A stretch of 64,000 bases of DNA from Escherichia coli O127:H6 str. E2348/69 (GTDB lineage: Bacteria > Pseudomonadota > Gammaproteobacteria > Enterobacterales > Enterobacteriaceae), in NCBI RefSeq assembly GCF_000026545.1, contig NC_011601.1, one strand, 5' to 3'. The notes under the pieces are model-generated. The model was not told the origin of the DNA, did no database searches, and saw only the letters and a list, made by a program, of their open reading frames with translations. The position numbers and the translations under genes are program-made. This document shows positions 33,866 to 35,092 of this stretch, piece after piece (within the stretch, counting starts at the first letter, position 1; each line of letters begins with the position of its first letter).

Positions 33866-35092
33866 TTAATTACTGACAGTTTCAGGTTTCGGGAAACTGA
33901 ACAGTAAATCACGGTAGTATTCGTATTGTTTCTGGCGCAACTCGATTTCACGCGGGAGACCTTCAGTGATGGAGTTGGTCAGGGTGTCGAATTTATCGAG
34001 TATTTCGACAATGCGAGCTTGTTCTTCTGAAGGTGGTACAGGTATTGGGAATTTTAAAAACATTGGTCGACGAAGTGAGGTAACCGATGAACTTACTGAT
34101 GCTTTTTGAATATAGGTAAAAAAATATGCTGTTATATAGTGATATACAAATCGCGGATTCATAAATGCATTTGGGACAATACGATATGCTCTCTGATGCA
34201 AAGCATATTTACCTTTAGCGTAATGAAATACCTTCCCCACCCCGGCACCATCTCCAGCTGTAATGATTGCTGTTTCATCAAAATCAAATACATTTAACTT
34301 TAATGGCTCACGTCCACGTGCATAAAAAATATATTTGCCATGTTCTATAGCATCTTGCGTATCATGGTTACCTGTTCCTATAACAGCCACTTCCCCCAAA
34401 GTCTTCCACTCAACCTCACCCTCTTTAAAACTCAACAACTGGTCACGATAGTAGTTGTACTGTTTTTTACGCATGTTAAGCTCAGCGGTAAGCTCAGCGG
34501 TAAGCTCAGCGGTAAGTGCAGTAAATTTATCCAGAATCCGAACGATTTCAGACTGGATGGCAAGGGATTTCTCCGGATTATCCGGGCAGGGGATGGGGAT
34601 TAAGAGCTTTTTTAGGTCGCCCATTGGTAGACTAATTACCGGGTTGCCGACAATTTTTTTGCTATAGTCTTTAACTATTTTACTTGATTGTAATAAATAC
34701 GATAAAAATCTAGGCGCAATTTTTTCCTTAATTGGTTTGATAGTGTAAACGCCTTCTTTGATATTCCAATTTATAGGATTTTCTTCAATTACCGCGATGC
34801 GTCCAACCGTGCCGGTTCCGGAGAACAATATATCTCCAGCTTCTAAATTAGAACGACCATTTATTATTTTTAATGCTCTATCATTTACTCTGTCTGTTTT
34901 ATCAAGAAAGACAACTTTGCCATTCTGGATCTCACGAACAGTTACGTAATATCCTTGGGCATCTAATGTATTTAAGCTAAAATTTTGGCGTGGGTTCAAT
35001 CCCGTTTTTAAGGAATGGATAACTTCTCCCAACATCTTCCACTCAACCTCAACCCCATCCAGCAATTTTCCCAGATAACTTAACTCGCTCAT
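33866..35092 (-). CDS. hsdS: type I specificity subunit (type IC framework, divergent TRDs)
   Basis: 408 aa. The central ([33 protein letters not shown] x3[17 protein letters not shown]) and C-terminal ([49 protein letters not shown]) conserved regions match EcoR124I HsdS. Both variable regions differ. Confidence 0.93.
34477..34524 (-). repeat. 12-bp tandem repeat encoding TAEL x3 (plus a degenerate 4th unit) in the hsdS central region
   Basis: taagctcagcgg occurs three times (34477-34512) and is followed by taagtgcagtaa. Confidence 0.95.

Follow-up and report, generated by a model that had tools for sequence, protein, structure and literature searches.

A three-unit TAEL repeat in the type IC hsdS gene of Escherichia coli E2348/69 and its probable link to the methylation motif CYYAN7RTGA

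The hsd operon and its repeat tract

We examined a 64,000-nucleotide stretch of the chromosome of Escherichia coli O127:H6 strain E2348/69 (contig NC_011601.1, assembly GCF_000026545.1; hereafter the window), which is 100 % identical to the E2348/69 chromosome record NZ_CP059840.2, and within it a short tandem repeat in hsdS, the gene for the specificity subunit of a type I restriction-modification system. Tandem Repeats Finder (TRF), run over positions 33000–36000, returned a single array at 34477–34516 with a period of 12, 3.3 copies, 100 % matches and 0 indels. Its consensus is TAAGCTCAGCGG on the + strand, which reads ACC GCT GAG CTT on the coding strand and encodes Thr-Ala-Glu-Leu (TAEL). 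By raw sequence, three units are perfect (34477–34512); the codons of the three TAEL units occupy 34478–34513 (amino acids 194–205 of HsdS), and the degenerate unit next to them codes for the (F)TAL just ahead of the TAEL units. At a period of 12, the longest stretch of self-match in the window was 40 bp, compared to a maximum of 24 bp and a mean of approximately 20 bp in 200 shuffles, and the array is therefore not a product of chance. A first-pass annotation of this DNA, made from the letters alone, was accurate as to the coordinates, the 12-bp unit, the copy number and the TAEL peptide, as judged by TRF, the sequence and its translation. An assembly artefact was ruled out as the source of the repeat, as the tract is identical in three assemblies and is also found on a plasmid.

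The hsdS gene lies in an operon with hsdM and hsdR (Table 1), and the gene order, in which hsdR follows hsdS after 121 bp, is that of a type IC system. HsdR and HsdM both match their EcoR124I counterparts over their full length, and the HsdS matches to the EcoR124 S chain of PDB 7BST are confined to the N-terminal, central and C-terminal conserved blocks, so that the first-pass annotation of the gene as a type IC hsdS was upheld. The alignment of the central block contains a single gap of 4 residues, which falls at one TAEL: 7BST has two units and E2348/69 has three. The two variable regions of HsdS (approximately amino acids 20–160 and 233–352) did not align to EcoR124 HsdS, from which it follows that the half-sites should differ from GAA and RTCG. 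On the strength of these alignments, the E2348/69 locus is best regarded as a bona fide type IC (EcoR124-family) system in the three-repeat state, and the near-identity of HsdR and HsdM makes complementation or subunit exchange with EcoR124I likely. Sequence, cross-reaction of antibodies and complementation are what define the families of type I enzymes.

Table 1. Features of the hsd operon of E. coli E2348/69 and of the adjoining defence island (positions in the window)
Feature	Position	Strand	Evidence and remarks
hsdS, 408 amino acids (aa), specificity subunit of a type IC restriction-modification system	33866–35092	-	Open reading frame; translation; match to PDB 7BST chain A, E=5e-79; RefSeq WP_001293053.1
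hsdM, 518 aa, 4-bp overlap with hsdS	35089–36645	-	PDB 7BST chain D (EcoR124 M protein), 1149 bits over 1–518; TIGR00497, 644 bits
hsdR, 1038 aa, 121 bp downstream of hsdS	30628–33744	-	PDB 2W00 (EcoR124I HsdR), 2266 bits over 1–1038; TIGR00348, 764 bits
Perfect 12-bp tandem array, three full units + 4 bp	34477–34516	-	TRF; sequence; translation; shuffle control
Degenerate fourth unit, TAAGTGCAGTAA (+ strand), 7/12 identical to the unit	34513–34524	-	Sequence; translation
N-terminal target recognition domain, ~aa 20–160, probable half-site CYYA	34613–35035	-	Unalignable to EcoR124 HsdS; half-site from the methylome
Central conserved region, ~aa 161–232, one coiled-coil helix, holds the TAEL array	34397–34612	-	129-bit alignment to EcoR124 HsdS residues 141–224
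C-terminal target recognition domain, ~aa 233–352, probable half-site RTGA (TCAY in the complement)	34037–34396	-	Module sharing; half-site from the methylome
C-terminal conserved region, ~aa 353–408, second coiled-coil helix, repeat-free paralogue of the central region	33869–34036	-	118-bit alignment to EcoR124 HsdS 292–404
DUF4942 protein	36952–37785		Defence island
684-aa McrB-family protein and McrC-family partner	38147–41508		Defence island
Phosphorothioated-DNA-binding restriction endonuclease	41571–42500		NF045808, 437 bits

Both conserved regions of HsdS contain LDKF...R(K/Q)KQY..YYRD, and only the central one holds the three TAEL units. With three units, the distance from LDKF to RKKQY in the central helix is 17 residues, which is the same as that from LDKF to RQKQY in the C-terminal helix; with two units it would fall to 13. 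This symmetry of the two helices at three units agrees with the view, taken from alignment in the review of Loenen et al. (PMC3874165), that three units are optimal.

The target recognition domains (TRDs) proved to be mobile modules of differing spread. The N-terminal TRD was also found in four other HsdS proteins (P0037, P0040, P0044 and P0049). In two more (P0039 and P0066) it is the C-terminal TRD, and is there preceded by a duplicated N-terminal conserved segment; both are natural cases of TRD position swapping or circular permutation. The C-terminal TRD is approximately 99 % identical at the DNA level in numerous E. coli and Klebsiella plasmid hsdS genes, and homologues with 82–83 % protein identity occur in Idiomarina, Methylophilus and others.

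Spacer rule and recognition sequence

The principle that copy number sets spacer length in type IC enzymes has been known since 1987–1992. Each TAEL unit contributes approximately one helical turn, displaces the TRDs by one base pair while turning them by 36 degrees, and changes the gap by one, as seen in EcoR124I/II, EcoDXXI and hybrids. The rule on which the first-pass annotation relied is stated likewise by Loenen et al. (PMC3874165): EcoR124I, with two TAEL units, recognizes GAA N6 RTCG and EcoR124II, with three, recognizes GAA N7 RTCG; three units and N7 gaps are found in EcoDXXI and EcoprrI as well, and hybrids engineered for unit number shifted the gap exactly as predicted. The interval between methylated bases is constant within each family (8 for IA, 9 for IB, 7 or 8 for IC, 6 for ID and 7 for IE; PMC3874165). 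In the E2348/69 enzyme, the central and C-terminal conserved helices would pair as an antiparallel coiled coil that keeps the two TRDs apart, with each 12-bp unit adding four residues, or about one turn, to the central helix and thereby placing the TRDs approximately 1 bp further apart and rotating them by approximately 36 degrees. With three units, M2S1 would be expected to methylate, and R2M2S1 to restrict, a bipartite target with methylated adenines 8 nt apart.

The E2348/69 methylome, determined by PacBio and Oxford Nanopore sequencing, contains two bipartite N6-methyladenine motifs (Tvedte et al. 2021, PMC8495745). One, YTCAN6GTNG/CNACN6TGAR, has 880 sites and occurs in four REBASE entries, which belong to three other E. 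coli strains and one strain of Shigella boydii; the other, CYYAN7RTGA/TCAYN7TRRG, has 579 sites, nearly all of them methylated, and had no REBASE match (PMC8495745). With the count running from the methylated A as far as the T that faces the second one, the methyl interval is 7 for YTCAN6GTNG and 8 for CYYAN7RTGA. Only one type IC hsdM was found in the E2348/69 genome, even at blastn sensitivity, and as its hsdS partner has three TAEL units an interval of 8 is predicted, which is a first ground for assigning the N7 motif to this locus. The published, nearly fully methylated motif has the N7 gap and 8-nt interval that three repeats predict, and the methylome check proposed in the first-pass annotation has in effect been carried out, with the link to the gene made by elimination.

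Three further observations bear upon this assignment. Systems of types IA, IB and ID are allelic at the classic hsd locus. In E2348/69 this locus, between yjiA and symE (NZ_CP059840.2 4219753–4222594; L003 34754–37595; outside the window), was found to hold a 3'-5' exonuclease gene and a 210-bp hsdR remnant, with no hsdM or hsdS. That only this remnant is left speaks for assigning CYYAN7RTGA to the type IC hsdS, and the deletion also implies that the source of YTCAN6GTNG lies elsewhere. Secondly, the E2348/69 TRD pair was present at full length in just 5 of 5,426 complete E. coli genomes, of which three are assemblies of E2348/69 itself and two are Korean genomes of later deposition. This pair therefore cannot be the source of YTCAN6GTNG, a motif on record for three other E. 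coli strains, and the unique N7 motif fits it. Thirdly, CYYA...RTGA is in the type IC format, in which a half-site ending in the methylated A is followed by R-T, and this supports the assignment; the comparable formats are CCA N7 RTGC for EcoprrI (PMC3874165) and GGA N6 RTGA for the prr-type system of Photorhabdus TT01, the single type I system of that organism.

CYYAN7RTGA is thus probably made by the three-TAEL hsdS of E2348/69, a conclusion reached by elimination and not by knockout, and we infer that the enzyme is active and recognizes CYYA(N7)RTGA. Several points weigh against this. The methylome paper and its preprint leave the gene for either motif unassigned (PMC8495745). A second type I system that makes YTCAN6GTNG was not found at the classic hsd locus, in the rest of the leuX region or in a search for diverged type IC hsdM genes, which leaves the elimination argument incomplete. 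Type IA systems, too, typically have an 8-nt interval, and the emptiness shown is that of the usual IA locus. Finally, as both motifs hold a TCA half-site, TRD homology to known readers of TCA would not discriminate between them.

It is conceivable, and in our view very improbable, that the two motifs are to be exchanged, with the three-repeat HsdS making YTCAN6GTNG, another system making CYYAN7RTGA and the TAEL rule failing for this TRD pair. Each motif is bipartite and has a methylated adenine in either strand, no gene has been assigned to one or the other, and the second type I system that this exchange involves was, as stated, not found. Against it, every characterized type IC enzyme with three TAEL units has an 8-nt interval and engineered changes in copy number moved the gap as predicted (PMC3874165), and YTCAN6GTNG was listed in REBASE for three further E. 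coli strains and a Shigella strain; of the complete E. coli genomes then available, no other had this hsdS allele at full length.

An intact but silent or non-functional hsd locus, with both motifs made by other methyltransferases and a repeat state without phenotype in E2348/69, appears even harder to credit. Although REBASE lists ten methyltransferases for the strain (PMC8495745), hsdR, hsdS and hsdM are open over their full length and near-identical to the active EcoR124I subunits, and the hsdS patch described below is perfectly conserved against a background that has diverged by 1–4 %. Decay in this family is usually visible as insertion sequence (IS) insertions or frameshifts, none of which occur at the E2348/69 locus, and the orphan N7 motif needs a source.

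Site counts in the window, 11 for CYYAN7RTGA and 11 for YTCAN6GTNG, do not discriminate between the motifs. No methyltransferase was found in the remainder of the leuX region of E2348/69. The EcoMIII locus of strain EC958 was considered as a shared second system, and two 50-kb EC958 stretches contained no hsd genes. An attempt to link the C-terminal TRD to RTGA through Photorhabdus TT01 failed, as a scan of the genome collection returned P. namnaonensis instead; in a P. laumondii draft reached by HsdM search, hsdS ends after 115 amino acids, and a search with that fragment gave fragments only. Motifs with comparable half-sites were found in the literature only in the E2348/69 paper and in reports on Photorhabdus, Staphylococcus aureus CC398 and Enterococcus faecalis.

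Comparison with characterized systems

EcoR124II (EcoR124/3, GAA N7 RTCG) resembles the E2348/69 system in its HsdR/HsdM family, in the conserved regions of HsdS and in its three TAEL units, and has the N7 gap and 8-nt interval. It differs in both TRDs, with half-sites of GAA and RTCG compared to the probable CYYA and RTGA of E2348/69, and it is encoded on an IncFIV plasmid, whereas the E2348/69 system is chromosomal and lies in the leuX island. EcoR124I (PDB 7BST and 2W00; GAA N6 RTCG) shares the enzyme family and architecture, and the HsdS chain of its cryo-EM structure aligned in all conserved blocks, but it has two TAEL units and an N6 gap, as opposed to three units in E2348/69. For the E2348/69 TRD pair, the EcoR124I-like counterpart is the 404-amino-acid allele of E. 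coli Z1323HEC0423 (P0002, on 143 contigs).

EcoDXXI (TCA N7 RTTC) and EcoprrI (CCA N7 RTGC) are likewise type IC enzymes with three TAEL units, an N7 gap and a 3' half-site that starts with R-T. The DFAST annotation of an identical hsdS on plasmid pLR-13_1 reads 'EcoprrI subunit S', which is a weak lead to EcoprrI as the closest curated S protein. Loci of the EcoprrI type carry the prrC anticodon-nuclease gene between hsdS and hsdR, whereas no prrC-like gene was found in the 121-bp spacer between these genes in E2348/69. At two other type IC loci, in Photorhabdus namnaonensis (L029 3749–4909) and Buttiauxella (L015 3692–4897), a gene of approximately 390–400 amino acids was seen between hsdS and hsdR, the position of prrC in EcoprrI.

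NgoAV and the phase-variable hsdS genes that contain simple-sequence repeats (Atack et al. 2020, PMC7383803) are similar in that repeat number within hsdS alters specificity. Their tracts are mostly of mono- to penta-nucleotides, shift the reading frame and change at high frequency, whereas the E2348/69 tract has a 12-bp in-frame unit that changes helix length. The survey of Atack et al. set aside tracts divisible by three for later work (PMC7383803). The E2348/69 tract is accordingly the state of EcoR124II, EcoDXXI and EcoprrI with new TRDs, and the principle itself is not new.

Copy number variation and the hsdS cassette

Copy number was surveyed in E. coli using synthetic queries with one to four units, which yielded 1,371 records having the central region. 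Two units were the commonest state (approximately 600–675 records), followed by three (approximately 414–440) and four (approximately 26). The one-unit query gave split matches across longer arrays, and the arrays that were fetched contained 4, 5, 6 and 8 perfect units of the 12-bp repeat, so that E. coli alleles with 1, 2, 3, 4, 5, 6 and 8 units were seen. In a cross-species set of 80 loci, with one genome per species, three units were found in at least 36 and two in 27, and no four-unit arrays were seen. That the three-copy state might be a rarity within the family was ruled out by these frequencies, as it accounts for approximately 30 % of the E. coli records and for at least 36 of the 80 species.

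The units themselves point to a history of gain and loss. Codon choice and the second residue of the unit (TEEL, TTEL or TDEL) vary by lineage and are uniform across the units of any one gene. Among 64 genes from many phyla, units diverged by 0.42 nt within a gene compared to 2.0 nt between genes, and none of 5000 permutations gave a value as low. This within-gene uniformity is the signature of concerted evolution through repeated gain and loss of units.

The E2348/69 allele also occurs with another copy number. In two Korean isolates, Z1323HEC0423 and Z1323HEC0067, HsdS is the E2348/69 protein minus one TAEL unit (404 amino acids). Pairwise alignment revealed a 2,559-bp patch at 33523–36081, comprising the 5' end of hsdR, the whole of hsdS and the 3' two-thirds of hsdM, that is identical to Z1323HEC0423 save for one 12-bp unit. 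Around the patch, the rest of hsdM, hsdR and the neighbouring genes differ from Z1323HEC0423 by 1.2–4.3 %. As the patch differs by the 12-bp unit alone, the change in unit number is younger than any point substitution in the imported hsdS cassette. The two-unit protein was present on 143 contigs of the protein collection, which did not contain the exact three-unit 408-amino-acid protein, and the three-unit state of E2348/69 is probably derived. The two-unit allele is expected to recognize CYYA(N6)RTGA.

A three-unit hsdS with one single-nucleotide polymorphism was also found on pLR-13_1, an IncY P1-like phage-plasmid of E. coli LR-13 from Ecuador. The near-identical patch shared with this plasmid spans approximately 32400–35900, and the ends of the pLR-13_1 hsdR and hsdM are 3–6 % diverged. 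The pattern of conserved patch and diverged flanks indicates that hsdS moves as a recombination cassette. A second marked two-/three-unit pair with the same TRD combination carries an L-to-I change (TAEI-TAEL in P0003 and TAEI-TAEI-TAEL in P0001), and a different TRD pair occurs with one unit in P0035 and with two in P0018. Repeat number is therefore polymorphic between closely related alleles, as expected of a contingency locus.

Because the units are identical in DNA sequence, replication slippage or unequal crossing-over could act on them, and the gain or loss of one unit would alter the gap, and so the specificity, in a single step that is faster than point substitution and yet takes place on an evolutionary time scale. 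The first-pass annotation had described the tract as slippage-prone and proposed a comparison of repeat number among related strains, and the same hsdS with two copies and the E. coli range of 1 to 8 units bear this out on that time scale, as distinct from rapid phase variation. A true contingency locus would go further, with high-frequency clonal switching, mixed subpopulations of 2, 3 and 4 copies and phasevarion-like methylomes. The perfect 36-bp tandem repeat and the wide variation in copy number between strains are in keeping with such a locus, and the EcoR124I/II switch was originally seen as a change in vivo (PMC3874165). However, the three E2348/69 assemblies, from separate laboratories and years apart, all have three units, which suggests that switching is rare and the tract stable in culture at the consensus level, and tells against a readily switching tract. 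Both bipartite motifs are 'nearly universally' methylated, and no N6 or N8 sister motif was reported in the E2348/69 methylome (PMC8495745). Three 12-bp units are also short compared to known hypermutable tracts, and a switch in an active system leaves unmodified sites open to restriction. High-frequency reversible change was not seen in the consensus data, and we consider a contingency locus improbable.

From the evidence above, we are confident, short of certainty, that the tract is the TAEL copy-number module of an EcoR124-family HsdS, in which three units give an N7 gap, that its target is most probably CYYA(N7)RTGA and that its unit number changes on an evolutionary time scale.

Long arrays and decayed loci

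Alleles with four or more units were associated with damage to the operon. All 11 of the inspected loci with at least four units had a lesion in hsdS or hsdM, and hsdR was full length in each. The lesions (loci L089–L096 and L103–L105, on E. coli chromosomes and plasmids) consisted of insertions of IS1, IS3 or IS5, an hsdM cut short at its 5' end by IS5 in pDAM_1 and a one-base hsdM deletion in two separate assemblies. By comparison, eight of the nine loci with two or three units were intact and one was damaged. Fisher's test on the first eight long-array loci gave p = 0.0004, or 0.003 with one of them counted as intact. Set against this result, the loci with four or more units are phylogenetically non-independent, several of them having common hsdR alleles.

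Active systems thus appear to be confined to one to three units, and we infer that more than three units are either incompatible with an active system or are gathered only after inactivation. Drift following inactivation would explain the long arrays and is the simpler alternative. Expansion past three units could itself kill type IC systems, by way of a mis-registered coiled coil, relaxed or shifted specificity and unprotected host sites, with survival through IS insertions or frameshifts in hsdS or hsdM; we regard this as unlikely. If true, the TAEL array would act as a mutational fuse, built into the system and setting a limit to its lifetime, and alleles with 4–8 units would be its fossils.

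Genomic context

The hsdR, hsdS and hsdM genes head a defence island at 30628–43700, which, in addition to the genes listed in Table 1, holds an HNH pseudogene and a truncated nanS. Beside it is an integrative element of approximately 15 kb (15258–30403), inserted in the tRNA-Leu(CAA) gene leuX (tRNA 15258–15342) and bounded by a 31-bp direct repeat of the leuX 3' end (15312–15342 and 30373–30403). A tyrosine integrase gene (29028–30239, - strand) adjoins the second copy of the repeat, and the cargo includes an AbiTii-domain gene (28038–28940), HNH and endonuclease genes and a DEAD-box helicase gene. Z1323HEC0423 is without this element and its hsdR follows directly after leuX; in other E. coli strains, too, the defence island without the 15-kb element is found beside leuX. 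In several P1-like phage-plasmids (IncY; L088, L090, L093 and L096), a type IC hsd operon directly adjoins the phd/doc addiction module, and phage-plasmids are a second route of spread for type IC hsd besides the leuX island.

Conclusion

In summary, our study describes a textbook mechanism in a new allele, with no new principle. What is new is minor in each case: a probable gene for an orphan motif, an isogenic two-/three-unit pair, arrays of 4–8 units in E. coli, in this sample in decayed loci only, and concerted evolution of the units across phyla. With the natural isogenic pair, the N6/N7 rule could be checked for a new combination of TRDs in strains that need no engineering. The copy range of 1–8, the restriction of long arrays to broken systems in this sample and the concerted units suggest an array in continual turnover that is kept to two or three units for as long as the enzyme remains active. 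For E2348/69 itself, a reference strain of enteropathogenic E. coli, the orphan motif CYYAN7RTGA gains a probable gene, which is relevant to transformation or phage-typing of this strain.

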